From the IMG/VR virus record IMGVR_UViG_3300020069_000003, positions 1-64,000 of that record: DNA of 64,000 nt. One strand, 5' to 3'. The stretch is from a virus (Duplodnaviria > Caudoviricetes). Below, one piece after another: positions 2,055-17,159 of the stretch (position 1 is its first letter; each line of letters opens with the position of its first letter). A program made the position numbers and the translations under genes. The notes under the pieces are model-generated. The model worked only from the letters and a program-made list of their open reading frames with translations. It did no database searches and was not told the DNA's origin.

Positions 2055-2459
2055 ATGAGCTGGGAGAAGTGGGACCGAGACCACCGCCCGACGTCGGCCG
2101 ACAAGGCCGCGCGGTCGACCGGTGCGGATTGGGTCAAGCGTGAGTCGGATAATCTGACTCAACTGCACCCCGGACTCAAGCTCAACGTCAGTCGTAGTAG
2201 CGCCGGGCACGTGGTAGTGCACTCGATAGTGGTACCCAAGGACAACAGATCCGAAGGAGTAGGCAGCCACATCATGCAGCATCTTACCCGGCACGCCGAC
2301 GCCCACGGCGACACCATGGCGCTGACTCCGTCCAAGGATTTCGGCGGCACTGTATCCCGTCTGAAGATCTTCTACGGTCGACACGGGTTCAAGCCGAACA
2401 CCGGCCGAAGTCGAGATCTGTCGATCTCCGAGACGATGGTGCGGGAGCCGAAGAAGTGA
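2055..2459 (+). CDS. GNAT-like acetyltransferase with WxKWD leader
   Basis: IVVPKDNRSEGVGSHIM matches the acetyl-CoA motif A (R-x-x-G-x-G); RLKIFYGRHGF matches motif B. Confidence 0.75.
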   Translation: MSWEKWDRDHRPTSADKAARSTGADWVKRESDNLTQLHPGLKLNVSRSSAGHVVVHSIVVPKDNRSEGVGSHIMQHLTRHADAHGDTMALTPSKDFGGTVSRLKIFYGRHGFKPNTGRSRDLSISETMVREPKK

Positions 2460-2929
2460 GCGGTGCAGACGCAGACGGCGGGCAGTACACCAACGCGGTG
2501 TCGCGTGACCGCATGTCGAAGGGTTGGCCGCAGGACGTCGGCACGGCCAAGGCAGATCCATCGGCGGCCCAGGGAATCAACCAGTACCCGGGTGCCAACC
2601 CGACCACCGCCAAACAGCCTTCGGCGCTGGAGTACCAGACCTACGAGACAGTGCCGGGCCAGCAGCAGCACGTGGTGCACAAGGGGGTGCCGATCGGGTA
2701 TGTACAGAAGTACAACGACCCCGGGCACGGCCCGCTGTGGTCGGCTGTCATCGCAGACCAGGTACACGCCCGCAACCCCCACCGGGCACAGACCCAGCGC
2801 GGGTTTCTGCACGCTTCTGACGCTGTCGGGCATCTCACCGACGCCCATCGGGACGTGGCCCAGATCGAGTCCTCCGGTATCTGGCGACCCGGTCCGCCCG
2901 GTGGCGGTCCGAATCTCCCGGGTCACTGA
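2456..2929 (+). CDS. hypothetical protein
   Basis: GTGA-coupled 157 aa ORF. Confidence 0.7.
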   Translation: MSGADADGGQYTNAVSRDRMSKGWPQDVGTAKADPSAAQGINQYPGANPTTAKQPSALEYQTYETVPGQQQHVVHKGVPIGYVQKYNDPGHGPLWSAVIADQVHARNPHRAQTQRGFLHASDAVGHLTDAHRDVAQIESSGIWRPGPPGGGPNLPGH

Positions 2930-3070
2930 TGAACGCCCTATTGCGCAACTGGGACCAGGTCTGGCCCAATTTGGAGGGTAGCGCGGCGTGGTGCTGGCCA
3001 GCGCTGATCTGGCACCACCTGCTGATTAAGCGTCACATCAGCCGACTGTTTACAGAGAACGGAGGACGCC

Positions 3071-3265
3071 GTGGCGGAGAAGAAGGCAGGCGGGGGTGGT
3101 GGAGGCCGCAAGTCCCCCGGCCCGATGCACAGCAAGGCGCAGTGGAGGTTCCTGTACGCCACCAAGAAACCGTTCGCCCACAAGTGGGCCGAGCAGGTGG
3201 TGGCGGAGCGGGGTCCGAAGACCGGGTACCATAGCCTGCCCGATCGCAAGGGGGTTCATCGTTGA
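3071..3265 (+). CDS. small basic protein
   Basis: GGAGG SD plus GTG; K/R/G-rich with SKAQWRFLYATKKPFAHKWA. Confidence 0.65.
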   Translation: MAEKKAGGGGGGRKSPGPMHSKAQWRFLYATKKPFAHKWAEQVVAERGPKTGYHSLPDRKGVHR

Positions 3266-3459
3266 GTTTCTGGCGTCCGTGGCCGGACTATCCGGAACTT
3301 TCTCGATGGGACCTGTTCGTACAGATGTTGATGGACTGGTTCGGGTACCCACACCGCCACGATTGGCAACAGCAGTCCTACCCACGCCGGGGTTGGGACG
3401 GGTCGGTATTTTACCTGAGGGAGTGCTCGACGTGCCACAAGGTGAAACCGTACCGGTAA
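3262..3459 (+). CDS. hypothetical protein
   Basis: TTGA overlap; C-terminal CxxC. Confidence 0.55.
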   Translation: MSFWRPWPDYPELSRWDLFVQMLMDWFGYPHRHDWQQQSYPRRGWDGSVFYLRECSTCHKVKPYR

Positions 3460-3496
3460 ACGCCAGACCGCTATGCACAGAAAGGTCGAGTAAGAT

Positions 3497-4033
3497 ATGA
3501 GCACGCTTCCGCCTGCGGGTTCGATTGGGCTGGTTAAAGTCGAGGGTGTGGTCGGCGAGGCCATCCGGGTCGGCCAGTGGCTCGACGGCGACGGGTTCGA
3601 GGACTACGAGCACGCGTTCGTGTTATATCAGCGCGGCTCCCAGGCCGCCCTGTCGACTGTGGTCGAGGCTGAGCCGGGCGGTACCCGGTTTGCCGGTCTG
3701 GAGGAGTACCGGGGCCGGAAGGTCCTGTGGCTGCCGTGCCCGGAGCAGTACACCACTGCAGTGATGATGGCTGCGGTGACCTACGTCGGTCTGCCGTACT
3801 CGTTCACCGACTACGCCGCGATCGCCGCCCACCACCTGCACCTGCCGGTAGCCCGCCTGCTGGAGGCCGTGGTCGAGCACAGCCACCACGTGGTCTGCTC
3901 CCAGCTGGCCACGGCCTGCGCTGACAAGGCCGGTTGGCCGCTGTTCCCCCCGAGTGAGTGGCCGGGGTACGTCACCCCCGGGGCGCTGGCGAAGCTGGTG
4001 CCCGCCGGTACAGAGCCGCAGCTGATCGAGTGA
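3497..4033 (+). CDS. permuted papain-like (NlpC/P60, YiiX/YebB-like) amidase
   Basis: His in YEHAFV precedes Cys in VCSQLA; EAEPGG, YVGLPYSF and VTPGAL motifs. Confidence 0.75.
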   Translation: MSTLPPAGSIGLVKVEGVVGEAIRVGQWLDGDGFEDYEHAFVLYQRGSQAALSTVVEAEPGGTRFAGLEEYRGRKVLWLPCPEQYTTAVMMAAVTYVGLPYSFTDYAAIAAHHLHLPVARLLEAVVEHSHHVVCSQLATACADKAGWPLFPPSEWPGYVTPGALAKLVPAGTEPQLIE

Positions 4034-5733
4034 CTGTCATCGACACGCCGGTCGAGGCTGTCGAGGACTTCCCCACCCACATCATCCGGCCGTCCGAGCG
4101 TATCGGCTATCTGCGGGGCGAGACCTCCGAGACGTTCGACCCGGTATCGTACATCCGGTCCAAGGACATAGGGTGGAAGAGCCGACCGTCTCTGCTGGCC
4201 GATCCCACCTCCTCCGGTACCGAGTGGCGCAAGGCGCAGACCAAGCTCGACCCGATGCTGTTCGCGCTGCTGTACCTGCGCGACCACCTGAAGTCCGAGG
4301 CCACCCGGAACGAGATCACGTTCTGTGACGCCCACCTGGACTGGTGCCGTGAGGCCCTCGGCTGGGTGGTGCCGACGCGCCAGCCGCGCGAGGCGCGTGA
4401 CGTCTACGTTGCCCCGCGCGAGCTGGGCAAGTCAACCTGGTTCTTCCTGATCCTGCCGCTGTGGGCGGCAGCACACGGACACCGCAAGTTCATCGCGGCA
4501 TTCGCGGACGCGGGCACCCAGGCCGAGATGCACCTGCAGACTTTCAAGAACGAGCTGGAGAACAACCAGCTGCTGCAGAAGGACTTCCCGGACCTGTGCG
4601 AGCCTGCGACCCGGTACCGGGGCGCCACCCAGTCCGACACCAAGGGCCTGACGATCCGCAAGTCGGGGTTCGTGTTCGGTGCCCGGGGCGCCGACTCCAA
4701 GACCCTCGGCATGAAGGTCGGGCACCAGCGGCCCGACATGCTGATCCTGGACGACATCGAACCGGGCGAGGACCAGTACTCAGAGTTTCAGGTGCAGGGA
4801 CGTCTAACCACCATCACCGACGTCATCTTTCCGCTGTCCGAGTACGCCCGCGTGGTGATCGCGGGTACGGTGACCCTGCCGGGTTCGATCATCCACCAGC
4901 TGGTCCGATCGGTCACGGAGCCGGAGGACGACCACCCGGAGTGGATCTCCGAGCAGAATATGCGGGTACACTACTACCCGCCTATCCTGACGAACGACGA
5001 CGGTACGGAGCGCTCGATCTGGCCTGCCAAGTGGCCGATAGCCTACCTGCAGGCGATCCGCCACACCCGGTCGTTCCTGAAGAACTTCGCCAACTCGCCG
5101 ATGGGCATGGACGGCGACTACTGGACCAAGGACGACTTCAAATACGGGTCTCTGACCGGCAAGACCCGGGTGGTACTGTCGATCGACCCGGCGGGCAAGA
5201 CCAAGACCACCTCGGACTGGACGGGTCTGGCGGTGGTGGGCTGGTCCCCGCCGCTGGACAACGCCGATCCGCGCCGGAAGGCCATCGACGCCGACGACAT
5301 CCAGGCGGCTGTCCTCGGCAACCTCGGGATGTGCGAGGTGATGTACGCCCGCGCGGTGAAGCTGGTGGGCGAGAAGCTGCGTGCGGAGGTGCTGCGGGTT
5401 CTGGAGGCGTTCCCCGAGATCGGTCTGGTGCTGGTCGAGATCAACCAGGGTCAGGAGCACTGGTACGACATCCTGCACCATCTGCCGTGCAAGATCCAGC
5501 TGATCGACCAGACGGTCGACAAGCGGGTACGCGCGGCCGAGTCGCTGGCCCACTATCAGCGGGGCAGGGTGATGCACACCGCCCGCCTAGGCGCAGCCGA
5601 GGAGCAGATGGTGTCGTTCCCGCGCGGTCCGAACGACGACATGGTGGACGCGGTGGGGTCGGCAGTCACCCGGCTGCTGCGGCGCAAGAAACGTACCGGT
5701 ATCCAGGCCCAGAACGTCGGATCGTACGCCTGA
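4030..5733 (+). CDS. terL: terminase large subunit
   Basis: Walker A APRELGKST, Walker B LILDDIE, nuclease motifs SIDPA and DDMVDA; start taken at the GTGA overlap. Confidence 0.93.
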   Translation: MTVIDTPVEAVEDFPTHIIRPSERIGYLRGETSETFDPVSYIRSKDIGWKSRPSLLADPTSSGTEWRKAQTKLDPMLFALLYLRDHLKSEATRNEITFCDAHLDWCREALGWVVPTRQPREARDVYVAPRELGKSTWFFLILPLWAAAHGHRKFIAAFADAGTQAEMHLQTFKNELENNQLLQKDFPDLCEPATRYRGATQSDTKGLTIRKSGFVFGARGADSKTLGMKVGHQRPDMLILDDIEPGEDQYSEFQVQGRLTTITDVIFPLSEYARVVIAGTVTLPGSIIHQLVRSVTEPEDDHPEWISEQNMRVHYYPPILTNDDGTERSIWPAKWPIAYLQAIRHTRSFLKNFANSPMGMDGDYWTKDDFKYGSLTGKTRVVLSIDPAGKTKTTSDWTGLAVVGWSPPLDNADPRRKAIDADDIQAAVLGNLGMCEVMYARAVKLVGEKLRAEVLRVLEAFPEIGLVLVEINQGQEHWYDILHHLPCKIQLIDQTVDKRVRAAESLAHYQRGRVMHTARLGAAEEQMVSFPRGPNDDMVDAVGSAVTRLLRRKKRTGIQAQNVGSYA

Positions 5734-5734
5734 A

Positions 5735-5752
5735 CCCCCGCTGTCGCGGGGG
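5735..5752 (+). terminator. GC hairpin after terL
   Basis: CCCCCGC-TGTC-GCGGGGG between convergent genes. Confidence 0.5.
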
Positions 5753-5777
5753 CTCGGGGCGGGGGTGGTGCAGGGGG

Positions 5778-6005
5778 CTAGCTGACCCACGCGGAGACCG
5801 CCTCGACCTCTTCGGGGAGGCAGTGGACGTAGTACACCGTCGAGGTCTGTCCGTCCTCGTGGATCCGCTCGATGCGGACGCGCGCGGAGTCCCGGAGGGT
5901 TCCGCTCGCGGTGACCTCCTGACCGATCTGTCGGGTGGTACGGACGCCACCGGCGGGGGTGGTGTGCTCGATGACCTCGGTGGTGTCGGCCGTGAACTCG
6001 AACAT
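5778..6005 (-). CDS. hypothetical protein
   Basis: 75 aa, GAGG SD, part of the leftward cassette. Confidence 0.7.
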   Translation of the reverse strand: MFEFTADTTEVIEHTTPAGGVRTTRQIGQEVTASGTLRDSARVRIERIHEDGQTSTVYYVHCLPEEVEAVSAWVS

Positions 6006-6068
6006 CTCGGGTTCCTCTTTCTTCCGGCGGGGACCGGTTGTCCCCTCTACCCACAGTCAACCACGCCC

Positions 6069-6083
6069 TTGACCAAATGTCAA
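6069..6083. promoter_or_regulatory. TTGAC-N5-GTCAA operator / -35 element
   Basis: Perfect TTGAC-CAAAT-GTCAA, intergenic. Confidence 0.7.
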
Positions 6084-6128
6084 GATACGACGACGCCCGC
6101 CGGACAACCGGCGGGCGGGGGCGATGTA

Positions 6129-6323
6129 TCAGGCCACCAGCAGCCAGTCGGTGGCGGCGGTGTCCTCGTCGGTGGGCTCGTACCGGACCAGCGTCTCGGA
6201 CAGCTCGTCCCACAACTCGCGGCTTCCGTCCGGGTTCTGGCAGACCATCAGCGTCTGGGGCCAGCCCTCGCGCTGGACCGGCTCGCCGAGACCCAGGTAC
6301 TTGGCGGCGTCGTCGAAGTTCAT
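6129..6323 (-). CDS. DUF2829/Tad2-like small protein
   Basis: MNFDDAAKYLGLGEPVQREGW resembles the MxFxxALxxLKxGxxVxRxGW N-terminus of DUF2829. Confidence 0.5.
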   Translation of the reverse strand: MNFDDAAKYLGLGEPVQREGWPQTLMVCQNPDGSRELWDELSETLVRYEPTDEDTAATDWLLVA

Positions 6324-6372
6324 CTCAGTGCCTCTCGCTAGTTCTTAACCTTAACACCATTCAATCATACCC

Positions 6373-6387
6373 TTGTCTGGCTGTCAA
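6373..6387 (-). promoter_or_regulatory. operator/promoter TTGAC-AGCCA-GACAA (minus strand)
   Basis: Upstream of leftward gene 6129..6323. Confidence 0.6.
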
Positions 6388-6444
6388 TGTTGGGGCACAG
6401 TGGCGCCCCCGACCCGGTGCGGGTCGGGGGTCGCGGGCCGAAGA

Positions 6445-6924
6445 TCAGATCTCCGGGATCGTGATGTAGATCAGTCCGCCCATCGGGTGGTTTACGAGGA
6501 ACTCGGTGGTGCCGGTAGCCATCTGCTCCACGTGCGCCTGAGTCAGGGGGACCGTGTACAGTCCGTACTGGGCGTCCTCCTCCTCCACCATCTTGTCCAG
6601 CTGCTCGATCGTGACGGAGCTGTCGGCCAGATCCGCGCCGACCAGCTCGGCGATCGCACCCACGACCAGATTCCGGTCGGTGACGTAGGGGATGGCACCG
6701 GTGGAGGTCTCGTAGGACACGGCCACCTGCCAGCCCTGGGACAGCTCGGGCTTGGAGGCGACGGCCGGGGTCTCGATGATCGGCCGAGCGTCCACCTTCC
6801 CCAGCAGGTCGCGCAAGGTGTCGGCGTAGTCCGTCATGCCCGACTCGATCGCCTCGCGGATCACGGTGCCCAGCTCGCTCTTCAGAGCAGTGGCGGTTTC
6901 GGCGTCGATGATGTACTCGGTCAT
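6445..6924 (-). CDS. hypothetical protein
   Basis: ATG at 6924 with GAGA SD. Confidence 0.75.
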   Translation of the reverse strand: MTEYIIDAETATALKSELGTVIREAIESGMTDYADTLRDLLGKVDARPIIETPAVASKPELSQGWQVAVSYETSTGAIPYVTDRNLVVGAIAELVGADLADSSVTIEQLDKMVEEEDAQYGLYTVPLTQAHVEQMATGTTEFLVNHPMGGLIYITIPEI

Positions 6925-6989
6925 CTCGGTGTCTCTTTCGACCAGGGGGGCGGCCAGCCCGCCCCCTCTAGGACCAGTCAACCATAGGA

Positions 6990-7004
6990 TTGTCCCCCTG
7001 TCAA
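6990..7004 (-). promoter_or_regulatory. operator/promoter TTGAC-AGGGG-GACAA (minus strand)
   Basis: Intergenic, upstream of leftward gene. Confidence 0.6.
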
Positions 7005-7034
7005 TACTTCTGACAGGGGGACAGCCTGCGCCGG

Positions 7035-7259
7035 TCAGGCGCCTTCGTATTGGCGGTTTTCGAAGTTCTCGGTCAGGGAGGACTCGCCCGGCTCATCCTC
7101 CTCTTCCTCGGACTCGTCGATCTTGGTTTCGAGCCACAGCTCGCGGGCGATGTTCTGCGCGGATTTCTTGACGGCGTACTTGCGGGTGACGGCCTGCCAG
7201 CGCTCGGTCCCGTTCTCGCCCCGCAGCAGCGCCCAGACCTGGTACACCTTCTTAGCCAT
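7035..7259 (-). CDS. hypothetical protein with acidic tail
   Basis: ATG at 7259 with GAGGAG SD. Confidence 0.65.
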   Translation of the reverse strand: MAKKVYQVWALLRGENGTERWQAVTRKYAVKKSAQNIARELWLETKIDESEEEEDEPGESSLTENFENRQYEGA

Positions 7260-7270
7260 TGTTCCGCTCC

Positions 7271-7618
7271 TCAGCGTGCAATCTCGACGTGAACCAGGTA
7301 CCGGTCTTCGTAGATGCTGACCTCCCGGTCCCAGCGGACGCCGTCCAGCGCCAGCTCCGACAGCGCCTTCACGTCCAGCGGGATCAGCCACTGGCCGGGG
7401 ACACGGTCTGCGGTGTGGTCCGGCTTAATCAGACTGCGCCACTGGGGCTCCAGCGAGCTGTACATCGCGAAACCCAGGGCCTCCCGCACGACGGTGACGG
7501 CAACCAGCCACATCGTCACCGGCTTCAGACGCGCGCCCTCCTTGTCGACCGCGTGGATGTCGGCCAGCCAGCCGGTAGACAGGTCGCGGCCGGACACCTT
7601 CTCGTAGTCGTCACTCAT
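7271..7618 (-). CDS. hypothetical protein
   Basis: 115 aa, GAGGAG SD. Confidence 0.7.
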   Translation of the reverse strand: MSDDYEKVSGRDLSTGWLADIHAVDKEGARLKPVTMWLVAVTVVREALGFAMYSSLEPQWRSLIKPDHTADRVPGQWLIPLDVKALSELALDGVRWDREVSIYEDRYLVHVEIAR

Positions 7619-7630
7619 TTCGGTTACTCC

Positions 7631-7795
7631 TCAGTTGGAGCCGGTACGGCCCACGTTGTGGTAGGTGGCCTCGGACGAGGCAGCCGACTGGGTGTTCTGC
7701 CAGACGCTGCGCCACCCGCACTCGCAGGCGCCCCGGTGGTAGGTGCGCCCGTTGCGCTTCTCCGACTCGGTCCAGGTGTTGCTGTGCTTGGCCAT
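7631..7795 (-). CDS. small CxC-containing protein
   Basis: ATG at 7795 with GAGGAG SD; ACECGW motif. Confidence 0.6.
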   Translation of the reverse strand: MAKHSNTWTESEKRNGRTYHRGACECGWRSVWQNTQSAASSEATYHNVGRTGSN

Positions 7796-7849
7796 GTTCG
7801 ACGTCTCCTCGGGCGGGGGTGGTGTAACGGGGTCCATTCTAGCATAGTA

Positions 7850-7864
7850 TTGTCTAGTTGGCAA
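7850..7864. promoter_or_regulatory. degenerate operator TTGTC-TAGTT-GGCAA in divergent promoter region
   Basis: Flanked by inverted copies of the GGGGGTGGTGT motif (7815+, 7867-). Confidence 0.5.
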
Positions 7865-7962
7865 GCACACCACCCCCGTCTGCGTCCGCACGGGCGTGGC
7901 CGACAGCGTGCCTCGAATGGTTCAATAGACCCAACTTGCTTGAACAGACTCGGAGGTCGTTG

Positions 7963-9594
7963 GTGGCTAACCCCGTTGAGGCGACGCTGGCCGCCAGCCA
8001 AGACCTGATGGAGGGCCTGCAGACGCTGGCAAACTCTCTGCCGGACTACCACCGGGCAGAGATGTACTACGAGGCCACCAACCCGGAGTTCTTCGCCAGC
8101 ATCCGCCTGCGACGTGCTCTGGAGCGCACCGGCATCACTTTCCGGTTCAACCTGGCCAAGACCCCGGTTGACGTCATGGCCGACCGCCTGGAGATCAACG
8201 CCATCCAGGTGGCGGACGACGAACAGGCCGACCAGATCCTGCAGCGGATCTGGGAGCGGAATCTGATGGAACTGGAGTCCACCAACATCCACCGCCGGGC
8301 GGGGGAGTTCGGGGACGCATACCTGATCGTCTGGCCGTCGCCCGACCAGGACGAGGACGACCGATCGGGCACGGCGCTGGAGGAGGACCAGGCCGAGGAC
8401 GACCTGGACTACCAGCCGGTGGACATGTTCTACAACTCGCCGAAGACCACGCGGGTCGTGTACGACATTGAGAACCCGACCCGCAAGAAATACGCCATCA
8501 AGAAGTGGACGCTTCCGGCCCAGCTGGGGATGAAGTCGAAGCCCCCCACCCGGGTCAACCTGTACTACCCGGACCGGATTGAGAAGTACATCACAGTAGC
8601 CAACTCCAAAGGCAACCAGCGTCGCGACTGGATCCAGTTCCGGGACGACGACGACGAGGAGTGGCCCTGCCCCAACCCGTTCGGCGAAATACCGGTGTTC
8701 CACTTCCGCACCGGCACCCCCTATGGCGACCCGGAGCACCGGGCGGCGTACGGCCCGCAGGATGCCATCAACAAGCTGATCATCACGCACGCCGCGACGA
8801 TCGACTACTACGGCTTCCCCCAGCGGTACCTGCTCGCCAATCCGGACAAGGGATCGGACGAGCTGGCCGACTTCGACACCTCCGACGACATCAACCGATT
8901 TGAGGACACCGGCCACGACTCCACGCTGCGCGCGGGACCGGGCGAGGTGTGGTGGCTGAACGGCGTGCGGCAGGCGGGGCAGTTCGAGCCGCCGGACCCC
9001 CAGGTGTTCCTGTCGCCGCTGGAGGTCTACGTCCGGATGATGGCGCAGGTCACCAGCACCCCGCTGCACTATTTCGACCCGCAGACCTACTCCCGCCTGC
9101 CCCCGTCGGGCGAGTCGATCCGCGCGGCCGAGGTCCCGCTGCTGAAGAAGGTGCGCCGCCGACAGGTCACCTACGGGCGCGGCTGGACCGAGTCGATGCA
9201 GTTCGCGCTGAAGATCGCTACCTGGGAGGACGACTCCGGCACCGGGCGTATCTTCAACCCGAACGTGGTGGTGCGCTGGACGCCCAGCGCCACCATCGAC
9301 GACGCGGCAGGCTGGCAGATGATGAGGGTCAAGAAAGACCTGGGCGTGCCCGGCCGCCAGATCCTCCAGGAGGCGGGGTACGAGGAGGAGCAGGTCGAGG
9401 AGTGGCTGCCGTACGGCGGGGACGACCTTGACCAGCGGGTGGATCTGCTGGTCAAGGTGGCTGGTGCCGCACAGCAGCTGGCCACCGCCGCCAGTCTCGG
9501 AGCGATGGATTCCAAGCAGGTCAACTCGATCATCATGAACCTGCTGAACCTGCCTGACGAGAAATCTACCGAATACGACGAAGGGACAGCCTGA
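7963..9594 (+). CDS. portal protein (SPP1 gp6-like)
   Basis: GGAGGT SD plus GTG; position after terL; GEIPVFHFR and QDAINKLI segments typical of actinophage portals. Confidence 0.9.
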   Translation: MANPVEATLAASQDLMEGLQTLANSLPDYHRAEMYYEATNPEFFASIRLRRALERTGITFRFNLAKTPVDVMADRLEINAIQVADDEQADQILQRIWERNLMELESTNIHRRAGEFGDAYLIVWPSPDQDEDDRSGTALEEDQAEDDLDYQPVDMFYNSPKTTRVVYDIENPTRKKYAIKKWTLPAQLGMKSKPPTRVNLYYPDRIEKYITVANSKGNQRRDWIQFRDDDDEEWPCPNPFGEIPVFHFRTGTPYGDPEHRAAYGPQDAINKLIITHAATIDYYGFPQRYLLANPDKGSDELADFDTSDDINRFEDTGHDSTLRAGPGEVWWLNGVRQAGQFEPPDPQVFLSPLEVYVRMMAQVTSTPLHYFDPQTYSRLPPSGESIRAAEVPLLKKVRRRQVTYGRGWTESMQFALKIATWEDDSGTGRIFNPNVVVRWTPSATIDDAAGWQMMRVKKDLGVPGRQILQEAGYEEEQVEEWLPYGGDDLDQRVDLLVKVAGAAQQLATAASLGAMDSKQVNSIIMNLLNLPDEKSTEYDEGTA

Positions 9595-9878
9595 TGGCCT
9601 ATTCGAGCGGATACGCCAAGGGAGCGGCGAACGACGCCGATCTGCTGCACGGTTGCGGGCAGACGGGCCAGGTCACCCACGCCAGCGCCAGGGGCACCGA
9701 GACCACCTCCTCCACCAAGAAAGGCATGGACCCGGGCATGTCGGCCGCGCTAGGTCGGCCCCGGGCCAAGTCCGACATGCCGGGATCGACGCCGGAGGAC
9801 GTCAACGTGGCCCCCGGCCAGCGCACCACCAAGTCCCTGGGGTACGGCAAGACCCCGCCCCCGATGCCGCGCCGCTAG
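9594..9878 (+). CDS. small low-complexity protein
   Basis: TGATG coupling to portal. Confidence 0.6.
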   Translation: MAYSSGYAKGAANDADLLHGCGQTGQVTHASARGTETTSSTKKGMDPGMSAALGRPRAKSDMPGSTPEDVNVAPGQRTTKSLGYGKTPPPMPRR

Positions 9879-9899
9879 ACCGAGAGGACAGACCGCCTG

Positions 9900-10142
9900 A
9901 TGTCCAAGAAAAAGACACCCGCCGAGTACCGCCGTGCCGCCAAGCAGCTGGCTGCGAAGGCCCCGCAGAAGGACGACCGCGTGGTCGACCAGTCGGGGTC
10001 TAACGGCAGCGTGATCGGTACGGCGGCGGGGGTGGTGAAGGTGCAGCACGACGACGGCAAGATAGCCTTCCACGCGCTGGGAGCGGTACGCAAGGTCAAC
10101 CCGGCTCCGGCGGCGCCGGAGGTCAAGAAGAAGGTCAAGTAG
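9900..10142 (+). CDS. Lys-rich small protein with SH3/KOW-like core
   Basis: DRVVDQSGSNGSVIG...VKVQHDDG core between basic termini. Confidence 0.65.
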   Translation: MSKKKTPAEYRRAAKQLAAKAPQKDDRVVDQSGSNGSVIGTAAGVVKVQHDDGKIAFHALGAVRKVNPAPAAPEVKKKVK

Positions 10143-10153
10143 GGGTGGTGTGA

Positions 10154-11524
10154 GTGAACTGGGCCAAGTGGGATGCCGAGCACGGGCATGGCGGTACCGG
10201 CGTGTCCTCGGCCGACAAGATCGCGGCCCAGATCCGAGGTGCGCTCGGAGCGGGCAAGACCGACGAGCCCAAGGTCAGGACAGTCCGAGGTCGCAGCGGG
10301 TCCACGATCTCCCGGGCCGAGTCGGCACGGTCGGCCGTCTCCCACGTCCAGAAGAGCGACATGAAGCGCCCTGCCCCGGTCAAGGGTGAGAAGGACCAGG
10401 CGGATTCGTTCCGGACCAAGATACGGATGGCCGAGTACAACCGCAAGAAAGCCGCCGCCGTGTCGCAGGACCCGGTCGACAAGCACACCCCGCGCACCGA
10501 GGCCCGGTCCAACCCTGCATCTGACTCGTCCAAGAAAATCGCTGACCAGATACGGGGGGTCCACGGGGCGCAGCACGGGAAGGACGTCCCCGCACCAGCT
10601 AAGAAGACGGCGCGCGCGCCCAAGACCGTCAAAACCGAGGCAGAGCCGACCTTGTACAAGGACGACGAGTACGGACGTGCGTCCAAGGCAGCGGACGAGG
10701 CGACCCGGAAGGCTGAGGCCGACCCGACCGACGAGAACCACAAGGCGGCGATGGCCGCCCACAGCTACGCGGCGGGCAAGCTGGGGTCCGGCAAGGTCAG
10801 CAGCAAGAACCCGGGCGCGGTTACGTACCACAACGCCATGCGTACGTACCACTACTACGCCAACCACCCGAACCGTCCGAAGGCGGGGGTGGTGGAGGAG
10901 CACGGGGACCGGGTGGACCCGAACGCGGCTGCCGGGCAGTTTCTGGACACGAGAAGCCGGGCAGCGTCTGAGGCTGCGTACAACTCCATACCGGAGGTGC
11001 GCAAGACGGGGGTGGGTCCGGAGCACCTGGACTCTGTCAGGGCGTACACCAAAGGGTCGGACGCCACCATCAACAGCCACCTGCGCAGCGGGCCCAGTTC
11101 CGACCCCAGCGTGGCAGCGCAGGCCCAGGGGCATATCGACCGGCTGGACGAGGCTTTCGCCAAGCAGGCTCCGCTGTCCAGCGACCTGACCTCGTACCGG
11201 GGCGTGTCCCACGTGGAGCAGCTGTTCGGCAAGGTGGGGGAGAGGGTGGGTAGCGAGTTTGTCGACCACGGATTCTCCAGTACCACCACCAACCCGGAGA
11301 TCGCACGGTCGTTCGGGGCACAGCATCAGGGCGGGGCGTTGCTGCGGGTCACCACCAAGGCCGGTACGCGAGTGTTGAATCCGGCCGGTGCGGGCGGGTT
11401 CGGACGGTCCGAGCGCGAGATCATGATGCCTCGGGGGTCTTCCTACCGCGTCAAGGCAGACCGTATGGTCAGGCTGCACGACGGCACCCTACAACGTCAG
11501 ATCGACCTGGAGCACGGAGGATGA
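10154..11524 (+). CDS. ADP-ribosyltransferase 1 (VIP2-like, R-S-ExE)
   Basis: YTKGSDATINSHLR, SYRG, GFSSTT, SEREIMMPR; basic N-terminal region with WAKWDAEH leader. Confidence 0.9.
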   Translation: MNWAKWDAEHGHGGTGVSSADKIAAQIRGALGAGKTDEPKVRTVRGRSGSTISRAESARSAVSHVQKSDMKRPAPVKGEKDQADSFRTKIRMAEYNRKKAAAVSQDPVDKHTPRTEARSNPASDSSKKIADQIRGVHGAQHGKDVPAPAKKTARAPKTVKTEAEPTLYKDDEYGRASKAADEATRKAEADPTDENHKAAMAAHSYAAGKLGSGKVSSKNPGAVTYHNAMRTYHYYANHPNRPKAGVVEEHGDRVDPNAAAGQFLDTRSRAASEAAYNSIPEVRKTGVGPEHLDSVRAYTKGSDATINSHLRSGPSSDPSVAAQAQGHIDRLDEAFAKQAPLSSDLTSYRGVSHVEQLFGKVGERVGSEFVDHGFSSTTTNPEIARSFGAQHQGGALLRVTTKAGTRVLNPAGAGGFGRSEREIMMPRGSSYRVKADRMVRLHDGTLQRQIDLEHGG

Positions 11525-11664
11525 CGGACGTGGCGGATTCGAAGAAGTCCAAGCGGTTCACCTGGACACCGGGCGACCTGGTGTGGAAAGATCGTCCTAC
11601 CAGTGCCCAGAAGCTGGCTGGTCAGGCGAGCGTGCCTAAGCGGAAGCAGGAGGGGAGCAAGTGA
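11521..11664 (+). CDS. micro-protein A (47 aa, TWxPGDxxW motif)
   Basis: MTDVADSKKSKRFTWTPGDLVWKDRPTSAQKLAG...; ATGA and GTGA overlaps with ART1 and ART2; not in the ORF track. Confidence 0.75.
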   Translation: MTDVADSKKSKRFTWTPGDLVWKDRPTSAQKLAGQASVPKRKQEGSK

Positions 11665-13754
11665 GCTGGGCCAAGTGGGACGCCGAACACCGCAGCGCCG
11701 GTGTGCGCGTGGCCGACGTAGGTGGCGGTCGGTCCAAGGTGACCTCGGGCGGCAAGCACCTGGGGAACATCGAGAAGCAGGGTAACCTGTACAAGGCCGT
11801 AACCAAGGTCAACGGGAACCTGCAGTCCCACACCGCCCTTACCCACCAGGGTGCGTTGAATCACATCCGGGCGGTGCACGGACTGCCTGCGGTGTCGTCC
11901 AAGAAAGCGGCTGCTCCTCAGGTCCCGCACGTCCCCGGCATGGGCCTGGCGTCTCCGAAGAAGACGGCGGCCAAAAAGACGGCAGCCGCCGCCCCCAAGA
12001 CCGCTGCCGCAGCCCGCGACGCCATGCACGCTCCCGCACCGGCCAAGAAAACCGCCGCGCCCTTCCACGCCTGGAACGCTGAACACGGATCGGGCGGGGG
12101 TGGTGTATCGTCCGCCGACCAGATCGCCGCTTCGATCCGGGGTGCGCTCGGTCCGGGCAAGATGGACGCGCCGAAGATGACGTCCAAGACCGGCAAGTCC
12201 GGGTCGACCATCTCCCGGGCGGCCGAGTCGCGCTCGACCGCCGCGCACGTCCTGAAGAAGGACATGAAGCGTCCGGCACCGGTGAAGGGCGAGAAGGACC
12301 CGGCCGACGCCTTCCGTACCAAGATCCGCATGGCCGCCTACAACGAGAAGAAGAAGCAGGCGGTGGCGGCCGACCCGGTGAACGCGCACACCCCCCACAC
12401 CGAAGAGGCCCTGAACCCGCACGACATGTCTCCGACGGACAAGGCAGAGGCCTATATGAAGGCTCGCAAGGCTGCCAACGCCGCAGGGTCGAAGGCGATG
12501 CAGGAGAATACCGTAGCGGCCCACCAGGCGGCCTACGACGCCCACAACAAAGCGATGGGCCTGGCCACCAGCTACGGGATCAAAAAAGGCCACAGGGGCA
12601 ACATGGAGCTGCACGCCAAGCAGATCCAGAAGCTCGGCGGTACGGTCAACCCGGGCAAGGGAGCGCCCGCCGCCAAGAAAACGGCGGCGTCGTCCTCGGC
12701 CGACAAGATCGCGGCGGCGATCAAGGGCGCCCACGCCGAGCAGCACGGCAAGGTGGTACCCAGCGCCCCGGCGGTGAAGAAGGCAGCTGCGCCCAAGGCC
12801 AAGGCTCCGAAGGTGACTCACACCGTCCCGGCCCTGGTGGAGAACAAGCACGCGGAGGGCAGCACGGAGGACCTGGCGGACAAGGCGGACGCTGCTACCC
12901 ACGCCGCCAACGCCAGCCCGTCGTACGTCAATCACCAGAAGGCGTATCAGGCTCACGCGGCGGTGCTGTCGAAGCTCGGCAGCACGTCGCACTCCGGGTC
13001 CGACCAGTACAAGGCCCGCGACTACCACACCATGATGCAGGGATACCACCGGTTCGCGGCCGACCACCCGAGCAAGGTGATCCCGGCGGGAGTGAAGGAG
13101 GAGCACACGGACAAGCTGGCCGACCGGATACCCCAGGCCAGCGCACACCAGATGTTTACCTCGTTCACCGAGAGCAACTCCCGGCGGCACTCCCAGCAGC
13201 TGTACACGGCGCTTCCGAGGGCGTCCGAGGCCAAGCTGACGGCGGCCGAGAAGTCGTCGATCGGGGCGTACTCCAGCAGCGGATACGGGACGATCAACGC
13301 GCACCACCGCAACCCCGGAAAGCTGTCCGCAACCGACAAGGCGTACGCCGAGAAGCACACCGCCAACCTGGACTCGGCGTTCAGGAAGCAACCCGCTCTG
13401 GAGCACGACCTGGTGACCTACCGGGGGACCCGGGAAGCGGACAAGCTGTTCGGCAAGGTGGGGGAGAAGGTCGGGGGCGAGTTCGTCGACCACGGATACA
13501 CCAGTACCGCTACTCACGCGGCGGTCGGCGGCGGATTCGGCGGCGGCATGGCCGGTAGCAACACCAACACGCTGGTCCGCATCCTGCATCCCCAGGGGTC
13601 CAAGGTGATGAAGCTGTCCGACACCAGCAGCTTCGGCGATTCCGAGCGGGAGATCCTGACACCGCGCGGCACCCGGTTCCACATCGCCGCCGACCGGATC
13701 GTCACGCTACAGAACGGCCGGACTCAGCGGCAGGTGGACCTGATCCGCAAGTAG
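11661..13754 (+). CDS. ADP-ribosyltransferase 2 (VIP2-like, R-S-ExE)
   Basis: YSSSGYGTINAHHR, TYRG, GYTSTA, SEREILTPR; K/A-rich N-terminus, paralog of ART1. Confidence 0.9.
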   Translation: MSWAKWDAEHRSAGVRVADVGGGRSKVTSGGKHLGNIEKQGNLYKAVTKVNGNLQSHTALTHQGALNHIRAVHGLPAVSSKKAAAPQVPHVPGMGLASPKKTAAKKTAAAAPKTAAAARDAMHAPAPAKKTAAPFHAWNAEHGSGGGGVSSADQIAASIRGALGPGKMDAPKMTSKTGKSGSTISRAAESRSTAAHVLKKDMKRPAPVKGEKDPADAFRTKIRMAAYNEKKKQAVAADPVNAHTPHTEEALNPHDMSPTDKAEAYMKARKAANAAGSKAMQENTVAAHQAAYDAHNKAMGLATSYGIKKGHRGNMELHAKQIQKLGGTVNPGKGAPAAKKTAASSSADKIAAAIKGAHAEQHGKVVPSAPAVKKAAAPKAKAPKVTHTVPALVENKHAEGSTEDLADKADAATHAANASPSYVNHQKAYQAHAAVLSKLGSTSHSGSDQYKARDYHTMMQGYHRFAADHPSKVIPAGVKEEHTDKLADRIPQASAHQMFTSFTESNSRRHSQQLYTALPRASEAKLTAAEKSSIGAYSSSGYGTINAHHRNPGKLSATDKAYAEKHTANLDSAFRKQPALEHDLVTYRGTREADKLFGKVGEKVGGEFVDHGYTSTATHAAVGGGFGGGMAGSNTNTLVRILHPQGSKVMKLSDTSSFGDSEREILTPRGTRFHIAADRIVTLQNGRTQRQVDLIRK

Positions 13755-13762
13755 TTTATAGC

Positions 13763-13792
13763 GTGACACAAAGTCAATGGGTATGATACAAT
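13763..13792 (+). promoter_or_regulatory. promoter GTGACA-18-TACAAT with overlapping operator GTGAC-ACAAA-GTCAA
   Basis: AT-rich intergenic region before AAGGAGGT SD. Confidence 0.6.
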
Positions 13793-13815
13793 TTTCTTAG
13801 ATAAGGAGGTGTGTA

Positions 13816-13986
13816 GTGAAGACACCCAAGACGCCGACTGACGAACGAACCGCCGACAAGATGACTTGGAAGCCCGGGGATGTCCAGTGGGTCAAGGACC
13901 CACCGGCCCGTCCGAAGAGAACCGCTGCCCAGCGGCTGGCCGACCGGATCCGGCGCAGTGACGGAACCGACCAACAGCGCCGGTAA
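13816..13986 (+). CDS. micro-protein B (56 aa, TWxPGDxxW motif)
   Basis: MKTPKTPTDERTADKMTWKPGDVQWVKDPPARPKRTAAQRLADR...; strong AAGGAGGT SD; homologous to micro-protein A. Confidence 0.75.
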   Translation: MKTPKTPTDERTADKMTWKPGDVQWVKDPPARPKRTAAQRLADRIRRSDGTDQQRR

Positions 13987-15082
13987 CACCCCGGCCGAGC
14001 AACAGGCTGTGTCAACGGTGACGGTGGAGAACGCCGCCGCCGTCGCAGCCATGTTGGTGCTGGAGAAACATGCGGTCGAGGCCGTGTCCGGACCCCTGCG
14101 CAGGCAGCTGTCCGACACTCTCCGGCTTCTGGCCAGCAGGTATGTGCTGATGTTCGGGGGACTGGACCGTTCCACCACCCCCGCCCAGGCACAGCAGCTC
14201 GTCAGCGTATTGACTGTCGAGCTGGAGCAGATTCGACAGTACGACCCGGTACCGGCGCTGACCGCCGCCACCGACGATGCCCGACGGGCGGGGGTGGTGT
14301 ACGCCAACCGGCACCTGCCGGACCCGGTGTCGGAGGCAGAGGTACCGGTGGACAAGGCCGTACAGGACGCGGTCGAGGCTGCCCCGGCCGCGATCTCCGA
14401 CGCTGTGGACGCGGCGCAGCAGTTTGCGCAGCAGCTGCCCATCACCGGCTGGGACGACGCCGTGCGGGCGGTGGGCAAGGCCAGCCAGGCGGCCTCGAAC
14501 CTGGAGGGGCGAACCTCCTGGGTGGTCAACCGGGCCAACTCGTCCTCGATCTCCTACATCGCCGCCCAGCGCGGCGCCCTGCTGCTGTGGGTGGCGGAGC
14601 CGGACGCCTGTGTAGTCTGTCTGGCGCTGTCTGGACACACGGTCAACCCGGCCGAGGGCGAAGGATTTGACGAGACGGCCACTTTCGGAAAGCCGGGGTC
14701 GGCACCGGATATCTACCCGCCCGGTATGCCGCTGATGCGTCCGCCGCGTCACCGATATTGCCGCTGCCACCCGGAGATCTGGTACGGCCCGGCGGTACCG
14801 GCGGGCGGCCCCGAGGAGACCTCGCTGTACAACCGGCCGGGGGTCGGGGCCAACGTGGACCTGCCCGCCGCTCTGCGGCGCGAGGCCAAGCGGTCGATCC
14901 TGTACGGATGGTCGCTACCCAGCGAATCCAATATTTCACGACTCGATGCTGCGGCCCGTCTGCTGGCCAAGGGCGCAGGTCTTCCGAAGTCGGTTGAGGC
15001 CAAGTCCCGCGCGGCAGTCAACAAGGGCAAGTTCGACAACCGGGTACATCCGTCGAAGAGGCGCACTGCACACCGTCCGTAG
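13958..15082 (+). CDS. MuF-like minor capsid protein (start uncertain)
   Basis: WVAEPDACVVCLALSG and PPRHRYCRCH motifs of the SPP1 gp7/MuF family. Confidence 0.85.
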   Translation: MTEPTNSAGNTPAEQQAVSTVTVENAAAVAAMLVLEKHAVEAVSGPLRRQLSDTLRLLASRYVLMFGGLDRSTTPAQAQQLVSVLTVELEQIRQYDPVPALTAATDDARRAGVVYANRHLPDPVSEAEVPVDKAVQDAVEAAPAAISDAVDAAQQFAQQLPITGWDDAVRAVGKASQAASNLEGRTSWVVNRANSSSISYIAAQRGALLLWVAEPDACVVCLALSGHTVNPAEGEGFDETATFGKPGSAPDIYPPGMPLMRPPRHRYCRCHPEIWYGPAVPAGGPEETSLYNRPGVGANVDLPAALRREAKRSILYGWSLPSESNISRLDAAARLLAKGAGLPKSVEAKSRAAVNKGKFDNRVHPSKRRTAHRP

Positions 15083-15146
15083 CCGATGTTAAACTGGCTA
15101 CAGTTTGCAGATGCAGACAGCTGTCGCCCCCGTTGGGAGTTCGCAC

Positions 15147-15998
15147 ATGAGCCGTATCCGCCTGCTTCCCCCGCCCGGTCAACCGATCGGCCACCTCAGG
15201 GACGGACGTCCCGTCTACCCCGTGATCGGAGCAGCCTCCGACGAGTTCGAGATCGAGGCCGATGAGCCCGACGACGCGGAGGACGAGCCCGACGACGACG
15301 AGGAGGAGGACGAGGAGGAGAGTGGCCAGGACGGCAAGTGGACCCCTCCCTCGAAGACCGAGTGGCTGAAGGTCCAGAGCGCCCTGTCGAAGGCCAACGC
15401 GTCGGCCAAGGAGCGCCGTCTGGCGCTGGCCGAGAAGGAGAAGGCCATCGCGGAGCTGCAGAAGCGGGAGGCCGAGCGGGAGGCCGAGGCCGAGCGCAAG
15501 GCCCTACTGGACGGCCAGCAGCCGACACCGGCGGGCAAGGGTAAGAAGGGGGGCAGGGGTGGTGTAACGCCGCCTGCCCCGATGCTCCCGGACAGCGTGC
15601 TGACTAAGGCCCAGGTGCGGCAGCTGACCGCGCAGGCGGCGAAGGAGGCCGAGGAGCGTACAGCCGCCAAGTACCAGGACAAGGTGGTGAAGGCGGCGGC
15701 TCGTGCGGCTCTGAAGGACGCCGGTGCAGCGGGCAACGTCTCCCGGCTGGTGGCGCTGCTGAATCTGGAGGAGGTCCAGATCGACGACGACGGCGAGGTT
15801 GCCGAGGGTCTCGACGACCAGATCGAACAGCTGAAGCAGGAGCTGCCGCAGCTGTTCGCTCCGCCGGAGCCGCCCAAGCCGGTGCGCAAGCGGGCCCCGG
15901 CTCCGAAGGTCACGCCAGCCGGTCGCCAGGACATCGAGGAGCGTCCGCAGTCCTCAGCCGAGCGTATCGCCGCACTGGCACTCGGCAACCGCGTATAG
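15147..15998 (+). CDS. capsid scaffolding protein
   Basis: Acidic tract plus coiled coil, directly upstream of the capsid gene. Confidence 0.8.
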   Translation: MSRIRLLPPPGQPIGHLRDGRPVYPVIGAASDEFEIEADEPDDAEDEPDDDEEEDEEESGQDGKWTPPSKTEWLKVQSALSKANASAKERRLALAEKEKAIAELQKREAEREAEAERKALLDGQQPTPAGKGKKGGRGGVTPPAPMLPDSVLTKAQVRQLTAQAAKEAEERTAAKYQDKVVKAAARAALKDAGAAGNVSRLVALLNLEEVQIDDDGEVAEGLDDQIEQLKQELPQLFAPPEPPKPVRKRAPAPKVTPAGRQDIEERPQSSAERIAALALGNRV

Positions 15999-16029: not shown

Positions 16030-16112
16030 CAGCTCGCGGGTGCGGGTGGGTACGGACCTGGATTGGTCTAAATCAACCAGCAACGACTCACCCAAACCCA
16101 GGAGACAAGCAG

Positions 16113-17159
16113 ATGTTCTCTGCTAACCGTCTGCCGGGCGGTCCTGGTATCGCCCCCAAGACGATCATCGGCTACATCGGCGACAGGCCGGTCTACGCCG
16201 TCGCGGGCGGTGCCCGAGACACGATGGAAGCGTGGATCCCCGAGGAGTTCGACTCCCAGGTGATCATGCGCGTGAACCAGATCTCCGGCGTCGAGGCGCT
16301 GGGATCTCCGGTCCCCATGAACTCCGAGACCCGGTCGGTTCCCCGGTCCGCCGGTGTCGGCGTGGCGCTGGTCGCCAAGGGCGGCACCTACTCCGAGGAC
16401 CAGTCGGTCAACGACTCGGTGATCCTGTCGGCGCAGAAGTTCGGCCAGGCGGTCCGGATCGCGGAAGAGGACATCGACGACGCGATCGCCGACGTCATCG
16501 CGACCAAGCAGAAGGACTGGGCTACCTCCTACGGCAAGATGTTCGACAACGCCTGCCTGGCGACGTCGGCCGCCGTCGGTACAGGCGTTCCGTTCGCGTC
16601 GGTGTACTACAGCCTGACCCAGACGAACTCGAACACCGGATACACCGCCAACGCCAACCTGACCCAGACCGGCAGCGCGGGCACCACCTACGCCACCCTC
16701 TCCAACTCGCTGGGCAACGTCGAGCGCGGCAACTACTTCGACATCTCGGAGATGGTCTGCCTCGCCCACCCGGCGTACCGCAACCTGCTGCGGAACATCA
16801 AGGACACGAACAACCGCCCGATCTTCCAGGAGTCGACGGCGGGCTTCCCCGGCGGCGGCATGGCCGCGTCTCCGGACACGATCTTCGGTATCCCGATCCA
16901 CTGGTCTCTCGGCGCGATGACCTCGGCGACGGCCACCCCGACCCCGACCGGCAACCCGCTGCTGATCTGGGCCAACCGCAACTACATGATCATCGGCCGC
17001 CGGTCGGGTCCGGAGTCGGTGTTCATCGACGGCCGGAACGGCCTGTCGGCGCTGACCGACGAGTCGATCCTGAAGATGTGCGCCCGGCGCGCGTTCGCGG
17101 TCGGCCACGAGGCGGCGTTCGCGGTCCACGAGGACAACTCGGGCAACATCAACCTGTGA
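16113..17159 (+). CDS. major capsid protein (HK97 fold)
   Basis: Position, 348 aa, ISEEDIDD-like segment (IAEEDIDD), KDTNNRPIF and IFGIPI motifs. Confidence 0.9.
   Translation: MFSANRLPGGPGIAPKTIIGYIGDRPVYAVAGGARDTMEAWIPEEFDSQVIMRVNQISGVEALGSPVPMNSETRSVPRSAGVGVALVAKGGTYSEDQSVNDSVILSAQKFGQAVRIAEEDIDDAIADVIATKQKDWATSYGKMFDNACLATSAAVGTGVPFASVYYSLTQTNSNTGYTANANLTQTGSAGTTYATLSNSLGNVERGNYFDISEMVCLAHPAYRNLLRNIKDTNNRPIFQESTAGFPGGGMAASPDTIFGIPIHWSLGAMTSATATPTPTGNPLLIWANRNYMIIGRRSGPESVFIDGRNGLSALTDESILKMCARRAFAVGHEAAFAVHEDNSGNINL

Follow-up and report, generated by a model that had tools for sequence, protein, structure and literature searches.

What does it mean when an acetyltransferase and two ADP-ribosyltransferases of one phage begin with nearly the same residues? 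The question is raised by an uncultured soil phage of actinobacteria (IMG/VR virus record IMGVR_UViG_3300020069_000003), whose complete genome of 77,480 bp carries direct terminal repeats and has a GC content of 66%. The stretch analysed here (the window) comprises the first 64 kb of this record; the motif count and the protease search cover the whole genome. An earlier note on the window had pointed out a leader, W-x-K-W-D-x-x-H, at the start of a GNAT protein (here leader-GNAT) and of two ADP-ribosyltransferases (ART1 and ART2), and had read it as part of a modular system addressing effector enzymes to the capsid. We find that the leader belongs to a module of ~30 residues, and put at roughly one half the probability that this module is a docking tag, which recruits cargo into the assembling procapsid of a protease-less SPP1-like head and thereby leads to ejection of the effectors into the actinobacterial host.

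A common module on an acetyltransferase and two ADP-ribosyltransferases

The three N-termini were correctly written in the earlier note, as a check of the translations confirmed: the GNAT protein starts with MSWEKWDRDHRPTSADKAA from an ATG at 2055, ART1 has a GTG at 10154 followed by NWAKWDAEHGHGGTGVSSADKIAA, and ART2 a GTG at 11661 followed by SWAKWDAEHRS. The six-frame translation of the genome contains three copies of W-x-K-W-D-x-x-H (0.0008 are expected from residue frequencies), all of them at residue 3 of open reading frames (ORFs) supported by GC content at third codon positions (GC3). Across 12 diverse N-termini M1, W3, W6 and D7 are constant, H10 almost so, while the x positions vary; with the spacing i, i+3, i+4, i+7 the two tryptophans, the aspartate and the histidine come to lie on one face of a helix. 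The tag module consists of a short amphipathic helix, a Gly-rich loop and an SADK[IL]AA helix. AlphaFold places the first helix at residues 3-9/10 and the second, after the loop, over SADK[IL]AAxI[RK]G in both GNAT and ART1. In an alignment of eight ART homologs (A8; 37-56% identity) the tag is the sole conserved block outside the catalytic region, with 12 invariant residues among the first 32, followed by a hypervariable, indel-rich middle. All tag bearers are strongly basic and Ala-rich (isoelectric point (pI) 9.5-10.2, net charge +15 to +44), their charge resembling that of known internal head proteins. A further stretch, SWARWNFEH, at about residue 134 of a group-1 glycosyltransferase (34333-35580, minus strand), is internal and was judged a chance resemblance.

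The leader-GNAT gene (2055..2459, plus strand) encodes 134 aa, comprising the leader helix (residues 3-9), the SADK helix (14-19) and a mini-GNAT core (~38-134); only 13 residues precede the GNAT module, which makes the protein the closest natural counterpart of a bare tag on a foreign protein. Its best Pfam GNAT score (PF13508, 26.1 bits) is just below the 27-bit cut-off. The AlphaFold model (predicted local distance difference test score 85.8; helices H3-9 and H14-19) was compared with the PDB using Foldseek, and all matches listed but one were GNAT acetyltransferases, most at probability 0.93-1.00, with a best E-value of 2e-3. The model also matches the mini-GNAT AcrVA5, a 96-residue anti-CRISPR acetyltransferase, with a template modelling score of 0.69 by target length. 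R65, G68 and G70 of the acetyl-CoA loop (R-x-x-G-x-G) are invariant in nine homologs. Judged by the fold of the model and by this loop, the protein is a mini-GNAT acetyltransferase. Its core matches positions 2694-2797 of a 3925-position PHROG profile, and homologous domains lie within giant proteins, annotated as DarB-like antirestriction or as PLxRFG, that N4-like and other phages encode. Standalone orthologs with 74-80% identity (P0004-6) keep the leader, and in leader-GNATs of this type W3, E4, K5, W6, D7, H10, R11, P12, S14, A15 and D16 are invariant. More distant standalone GNAT homologs have other N-terminal extensions of 70-110 residues, and none is bare.

The whole GNAT gene corresponds to a 396-bp indel (2061..2456, plus strand) flanked by the 5-bp direct repeat TGAGC at 2056-2060 and 2457-2461. 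According to blastn of the window and the junction sequences, the closest relative, L001 (95-97% DNA identity), is without exactly this cassette. The ATGAGC of the resident gene provides the insert with a Met-Ser start, and a new start at GTGAGC, overlapping the GNAT stop, serves the resident gene (2456-2929). Scans of IMG/VR and of JGI metagenomes with the leader-GNAT alignment gave no match.

ART1 (10154..11524, plus strand, 456 aa, pI 9.8) is composed of the leader helix (residues 3-10), a Gly loop, the SADKIAAQIRGA helix (19-30), a basic tether, a helical region and the ART domain (290-435). The tether, basic and modelled with low AlphaFold confidence, spans ~140 residues up to about residue 170, ahead of the folded helical and ART domains. 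ART2 (11661..13754, plus strand, 697 aa) has the leader, an inserted small domain of ~120 aa (KHLGNIE...HIRAVHG), a degenerate second leader, repeats of a carrier region and the ART domain (524-693). The internal leader-plus-SADK copy FHAWNAEHGSGGGGVSSADQIAA (12063..12131, plus strand) reads FHAWNAEHG...SSADQIAA. In the ART2 homologs P0011 and P0015 it is complete (WSQWDAEH or WSKWDEQH); most ART2-type internal copies have lost the first W, which these two keep, and W-[DN]-x-E-H is always kept. ART1 and ART2 score 58.4 and 61.5 bits, respectively, against PF03496 (cut-off 23.4), and the catalytic residues R349, S376, T377 and E422 (R / S-T-S / [EQ]-x-E) are invariant in A8. The earlier note had spoken of three different effector enzymes with unrelated domains. 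This is true of GNAT versus ART, but ART1 and ART2 are paralogs (39-47% identity across several hundred residues), alike far beyond the leader, so that the independent comparison is between GNAT and the ART family rather than among three unrelated enzymes.

Micro-ORFs with the common motif [KR](F/M)TW.PGD.VW..(R/K)PTSAQ.LAG follow ART1 (11521-11664), ART2 (13816-13986) and an 839-aa ART of another relative, L005 (~16030-16207). The first overlaps the ART1 stop by ATGA and the ART2 start by GTGA, and the second overlaps the called start of the MuF-like gene. Their products may be immunity or chaperone partners of the ARTs.

Distribution of tag bearers and their linkage to further effectors

A strict DNA pattern of the leader matched 17 loci in IMG/VR; real ORF starts were found only in the clade of this phage, the rest being chance matches. 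A word-indexed profile search of 5.8 billion proteins returned 30, namely 18 with an ART domain, two leader-GNATs and ten without a Pfam domain. An exhaustive hidden Markov model (HMM) search of 1.84 billion cluster representatives returned 22 proteins, matched at residues 1-45 in nearly all cases, which shows that the tag family is narrow. The HMM-matched bearers were assigned to this clade of soil phages, P0045 being read as another lineage. Elsewhere, too, the motif is present on leader-GNATs and other non-ART proteins, and is not confined to ART paralogs, the case that the earlier note had named as fatal to its idea. Fifteen uncultured soil relatives (L001-L015) were found via the portal protein; relatives have 0-2 tag-bearing genes at exactly the variable post-portal slot that ART1 and ART2 occupy, between the portal gene and those for the MuF-like, scaffold and capsid proteins.

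Most bearers have a common N-terminal carrier and variable C-termini. The C-terminus of P0034 contains an HExxH motif. Inspection by eye showed DGHHR and HExxH motifs in P0036 (977 aa); its atlas leads, to ddrB-ParB and peptidase clusters, have scores under 0.8, and a scan of GTDB genomes gave no match. P0017 (from L002), P0026 (L006) and P0019 (L008) end in domains without an assigned family. No Pfam match was obtained for the C-terminal domains of P0017, P0019, P0021, P0026, P0032, P0034 and P0036, and PDB sequence searches with P0036, P0045 and the MuF-like profile returned nothing useful. Three minimal proteins retain the tag and have dropped the carrier: P0028 (359 aa), in which most of it is gone, and P0031 (119 aa) and P0043 (91 aa), in which the tag is joined to the small non-enzymatic domain that ART2 has as an insert.

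In two relatives, L006 and L002, the same GNAT (58% and 51% identity, respectively) is encoded directly after a tag-bearing post-portal gene, in the -1 frame. The homology starts at the SADK motif, there is no ATG, GTG or TTG for 26 (L006) and 36 (L002) codons of the -1 ORF, and GC3 in this frame is 0.83-0.88 from the slip site onward. These two genomes and L008 have in common a cassette made of C_CCA_AAA or G_GGA_AAA, 6 nt and a conserved GCCCGG-N6-CCGGGC hairpin. The slippery heptamer is located in the last codons of the carrier, and the 0-frame stop follows 2-6 codons later, in the spacer or the loop. The -1 extension comprises 131 codons with the GNAT in L006 (10177-10569), 421 codons with the GNAT and an HExxH domain in L002 (14034-15296), and 195 codons with a different, GNAT-like domain in L008 (13965-14549), where an ATG at codon 20 of the -1 ORF could also serve as a start. 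By their sequence, all three loci have what is expected of programmed -1 ribosomal frameshifting. The distal 280 aa of the L002 extension, which hold the HExxH domain, share 51% identity (E 4e-81) with the in-frame C-terminus of tag-bearing P0034; the same effector is thus joined to the tag either way. Among 52 loci matching the cassette pattern in IMG/VR, only the three known ones have a -1 ORF, and the others were set aside as terminator-like hairpins or in-frame sequence. The window itself is without the cassette, seen only in L002, L006 and L008.

Programmed -1 frameshifts of phage structural genes are known from the tail chaperone G/GT of lambda and the capsid protein 10A/10B of T7, and yield a minor, C-terminally extended product at a fixed ratio. 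The loci described here resemble them in having, a few codons ahead of the 0-frame stop, an X_XXY_YYZ heptamer that is followed by a spacer and a GC-rich hairpin. Unlike in lambda and T7, the extension in the relatives is an enzyme domain (GNAT, or GNAT plus HExxH) on a putative ejected head protein.

The module is also present in a metagenomic protein of a different kind. P0045 (1172 aa) has only internal copies, three in number (KTWAKWDEEHGGTGH..SQAERIA and two more), with the pattern WAKWD..EH / SA[DE][KR]IA, and then a long, helical C-terminal stretch. Over its first 175 residues it is homologous to proteins that phages of Streptomyces, Alicyclobacillus and Thermoanaerobacterium encode and that are annotated as maturation proteases of the capsid or head. 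Since maturation proteases act within the procapsid, P0045 provides an independent link of the module to the capsid interior, and its internal-only copies speak for a binding module rather than a strictly N-terminal signal. Scans of IMG/VR and metagenomes with P0045 gave no match.

A proposed docking tag and the explanations that compete with it

We propose that the tag docks its cargo to a component of the assembling procapsid, the head being of a protease-less, SPP1-like type with portal, MuF-like protein, scaffold and HK97-fold capsid protein. The cargo would consist of R-S-ExE ADP-ribosyltransferases and the mini-GNAT, and in relatives of an HExxH peptidase-like domain and others. It might stay with the DNA on its basic, largely disordered tether, be ejected into the actinobacterial host and modify host proteins early in infection. 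Effectors would be joined to the tag in three interchangeable ways within the clade, by in-frame fusion to the carrier, by -1 frameshifting at the last codons of the carrier, or by direct fusion to the bare tag. The earlier notion of a modular address-plus-effector system for the head gains from the position in the head module, the basic nature of the proteins, the homology of the GNAT to a domain of giant DarB-like virion proteins, the tag kept on diverged GNATs, the frameshift linkage and the maturation-protease protein. Three cases of natural variation favour an address role, namely the exact GNAT indel against L001, the frameshift-linked GNAT of L006 and L002, and the threefold module behind the protease domain of P0045. 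It has to be given up in so far as the tag is not free-standing on unrelated proteins: the bearers mostly belong to one family and the module can be internal. A complex prediction for portal (residues 45-525), MuF-like protein (30-400) and the 45-aa leader alignment scored 0.00 with controls not run, and weighs neither way on binding.

Should the tag prove to be an address, one could read from sequence which proteins this soil actinophage clade injects, and short capsid-address peptides would not be limited to T4-like and jumbo phages with prohead proteases but would extend, unclipped, to small SPP1-type heads. With a tag of at most 30 residues, one would also have a convenient means of loading proteins into phages that infect Streptomyces-like hosts. 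As a recoding signal in head genes, the frameshift cassette is simple and testable. That one acetyltransferase is linked in three ways, by its own tag, as a frameshift extension and by in-frame fusion, illustrates how polyvalent and polymorphic phage effectors are assembled and disassembled in evolution. A bolder version of the docking proposal is conceivable, though we hold it only tentatively: in actinophage heads that lack a protease, a portable, uncleaved procapsid-docking module of no more than 30 residues could load any enzyme, bring a maturation protease into the shell in the other lineage, and have the dose of additional effectors set by -1 frameshifting at the conserved cassette of the tagged carrier. 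It would amount to a second capsid-address system, mechanistically distinct from that of T4, and to the first use of recoding to append injected enzymes.

Several known systems are similar in part. Short conserved terminal peptides on diverse enzymes, docking inside an HK97-fold shell, are known from encapsulin cargo loading. The likeness lies in the short terminal peptide, the diversity of enzymes and the HK97-fold shell; the sequence of the tag is different, encapsulin peptides are usually C-terminal, and the capsid protein is here no more than a conceivable receptor. In phage P1, more than 9 and fewer than 30 residues suffice as the N-terminal packaging signal of DarB (PMC9024508). DarB is an anti-defence virion protein whose N-terminal signal is short like the tag, and the GNAT of the window is homologous to a domain of DarB-like proteins in N4-like phages; its signal has a different sequence, P1 is a myovirus with a protease, and DarB loading needs other Dar proteins. 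The effector repertoire is that of polyvalent proteins: in such head-delivered proteins the same GNAT family, which Actinobacteria also have in solo form, neighbours ART (Iyer et al. 2017; PMC5512222). GNAT occurs there next to ART and to peptidase and ParB-like domains, the counterparts of the last two being putative here, and virion delivery was deduced from head-gene context. The difference is that the effectors are split here into small tagged proteins or joined by frameshifting, instead of forming one giant ORF: there is one enzyme per protein in the window, and in L002 a polypeptide with carrier, GNAT and HExxH domain would arise only if -1 frameshifting takes place. Head packaging was likewise deduced for ARTs whose genes lie among head genes or that are fused to MuF (Iyer et al. 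2022). Tagged cargo finds a nearer analogy than T4 clipping in gp7 of SPP1, a minor protein that binds DNA and is directed to the procapsid via the portal (PMC5576092).

The tagged cargo also resembles MuF polymorphic toxins (Jamet et al. 2017; PMC5576092) and MuF-ART fusions (PMC9503650) in its locus just after the portal gene, and the former in having a conserved N-terminal part, exchangeable C-terminal toxins (ART, metallopeptidase, nuclease) and small downstream ORFs. By sequence, the resemblance in locus and C-terminal variability comes without a MuF domain. In contrast to those toxins, a separate MuF-like gene follows the cargo genes here. The possibility that the carrier is a hidden MuF was rejected, with an hhalign probability of 0.2% against the MuF-like protein of the clade and no Pfam MuF match in ART1 or ART2.

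A number of observations weigh against a docking tag. About two thirds of the tag bearers are ART paralogs and most non-ART bearers have the same carrier region, and because most bearers thus form one polymorphic family, common descent explains much of the sharing. The leader-GNAT gene does not lie in the portal-MuF slot but 5.4 kb upstream of the portal gene. Genes of the L002/L006 type have identical 15-16-nt SADKLA-coding repeats at both ends, and, as far as their sequence tells, a single deletion between such repeats could have produced the leader-GNAT layout, the leader being carried along whether functional or not. The internal copies in ART2-type proteins and P0045 indicate that an N-terminal position is not strictly needed. 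Finally, the window's own MuF-like protein is below Pfam significance, and the best portal identity to any isolated phage is 40%, which leaves the phage without a close cultured relative.

Part of this evidence fits an alternative that we regard as rather unlikely. The motif may be the conserved N-terminus of one polymorphic effector family without a role in head targeting, passively acquired by the GNAT through deletion between SADK-coding repeats; its role might then be in DNA or nucleoid binding in or outside the capsid, in binding a host target after delivery, or in folding and stability. Most bearers are indeed homologous well past the leader, the SADKLA repeats would on deletion give exactly the leader-SADK-GNAT layout, and internal copies exist. 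However, in standalone GNATs of 74-80% identity the leader is conserved as strongly as the catalytic core, among diverged ARTs no other non-catalytic block is conserved, P0028, P0031 and P0043 keep the tag and drop the carrier, and the module recurs in a maturation-protease protein.

Alternatively, the leader might dock a phage-encoded inhibitor or chaperone that silences toxic enzymes in the producing cell, the candidates being the micro-proteins encoded after the ARTs. We consider this improbable. The micro-ORFs of ART1, ART2 and the L005 ART, with their common motif and their start and stop codons overlapping the neighbouring genes, would suit such a role, and downstream immunity genes are frequent for MuF-type toxins (PMC5576092). 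Yet no micro-ORF adjoins the leader-GNAT gene, P0031 and P0043 are small tag-only proteins free of any enzyme, and the module is also present in a protease protein needing no immunity.

It is very improbable that the leader is a true T4-type capsid targeting sequence (CTS), i.e. a propeptide that directs cargo to a scaffold core and is then cut by a prohead protease. In position and length the leader is comparable to the CTS of T4 IPIII, 10 residues of which suffice to load foreign proteins into heads (PMC9026906). There is a precedent in T4 Alt, an ART, which loses a 7-residue N-terminal propeptide (PMC9026906), and P0045 joins the module to a protease domain in another lineage. The T4 CTS (IPI-III, Alt; Mullaney & Black 1996, reviewed in PMC9026906) is likewise a tag of ~10 residues at the extreme N-terminus, common to otherwise different, basic, non-essential internal proteins including an ADP-ribosyltransferase, with a repertoire differing among related phages. 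A short N-terminal peptide on otherwise different proteins of one phage is found here as well, the head-internal location of these proteins being suggested by context. The two sequences are unrelated, though, and the tag differs further in its second SADK helix, its internal copies, the SPP1-like head in place of the T4 core, and a loading deduced from context. The complete genome has no match to Peptidase_S78, ClpP (S14), S49 or S77, so that no prohead protease was found; no Glu-type cleavage motif (L/I-x-E) comes after the leader; the module can also stand internally; and with its MuF-like protein and separate scaffold the head belongs to the SPP1 type. Of the analogy drawn in the earlier note, the short common N-terminal peptide therefore survives and the T4-type protease and cleavage motif do not. 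Given the SPP1-type head of a genome without a protease match, T4-style clipping is unlikely, and the tag is probably a non-clipped docking module. A short common leader as capsid address is, by analogy, a known idea (T4 CTS, P1 DarB), and the tag would work like both of these yet belongs to neither, the sequences being unrelated and a protease step not found. Specific to this case are the protease-less small head, the Trp-rich helix-loop-helix tag, the reuse of the module in a protease protein and the frameshift cassette.

That conservation acts on the nucleic acid, the 5' ends of the three genes serving in translation initiation or as a regulatory RNA element, is barely conceivable, for although their first 30 nt are alike, the similarity begins at the start codon with unrelated DNA upstream, it follows from the peptide, given the one or two codons available for W, K and D in this 66% GC genome, the amino acids W, W and D are invariant across relatives while codons between them change the residue, and the module is conserved internally in proteins.

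The head module and minor features of the locus

The left end of the genome carries a classical head module on the plus strand. The large terminase subunit (3958..5733; phrog_38, E 3e-58) is encoded on the strand of the GNAT gene, 1.5 kb downstream of it, and is followed by the portal protein (7858..9594; phrog_104, E 8e-66; PF05133). Two small ORFs separate the portal gene from ART1. Downstream of ART2 are the genes for a MuF-like minor head protein (13880..15082, 400 aa), a scaffolding protein (15105..15998; PF06810, 63.8 bits; phrog_194) and a major capsid protein of the HK97 fold family (16113..17159; PF05065, 60.3 bits; phrog_10), all on the plus strand, which gives the order portal, cargo (ART1, ART2), MuF-like, scaffold and capsid protein. 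The MuF-like protein was recognised by ortholog matches, Cys/His motifs and annotated homologs: five of ten orthologs match PF04233 weakly (best E 0.0014), the motifs C..C and H.. CRC (a Cys/His motif with a CRC end) are invariant in them, and cultured Streptomyces phages have homologs of the 400-aa protein whose annotation is MuF-like minor capsid protein. Its true start is probably near 13964, since the called start overlaps the second micro-ORF. The nearest isolated phages have Streptomyces, Arthrobacter, Gordonia and Microbacterium as hosts and portal identities of 32-40%. The cultured Streptomyces phages Gibson and KimJongPhill have an identical head gene order and are without the leader, and neither megablast of the region nor tblastn of ART2 gave a match in the phage collection.

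The scaffold and major capsid proteins have a second common N-terminal peptide of ~28 residues, [RN]L...P...[IL][IL]G[YHF]...G.P[IV][YF].[IVL].G[GA], which is present in all 9-10 relatives (same genes, L002-L013). The capsid protein of KimJongPhill begins directly after this extension, which may be another common assembly peptide of the same head module. A 178-aa ORF (3497-4033) directly before the large terminase gene matches phrog_1128 (enoyl-CoA hydratase/carnitine racemase-like; E 6.5e-12) and no Pfam family; judged by its position, it may encode the small terminase. In L011 the MuF-like ortholog (12094-14004) is 636 aa long and matches the intein splicing domain PF14890 (E 7.5e-06), by which it would hold an intein within a minor head protein. 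Directly before the start codon of ART1 (10130-10153) there is a G-rich word, GGGGTGGTGT(A/G), which is found again at junctions between genes of relatives, such as behind the 119-aa gene of L003 and at the end of the L002 GNAT segment.

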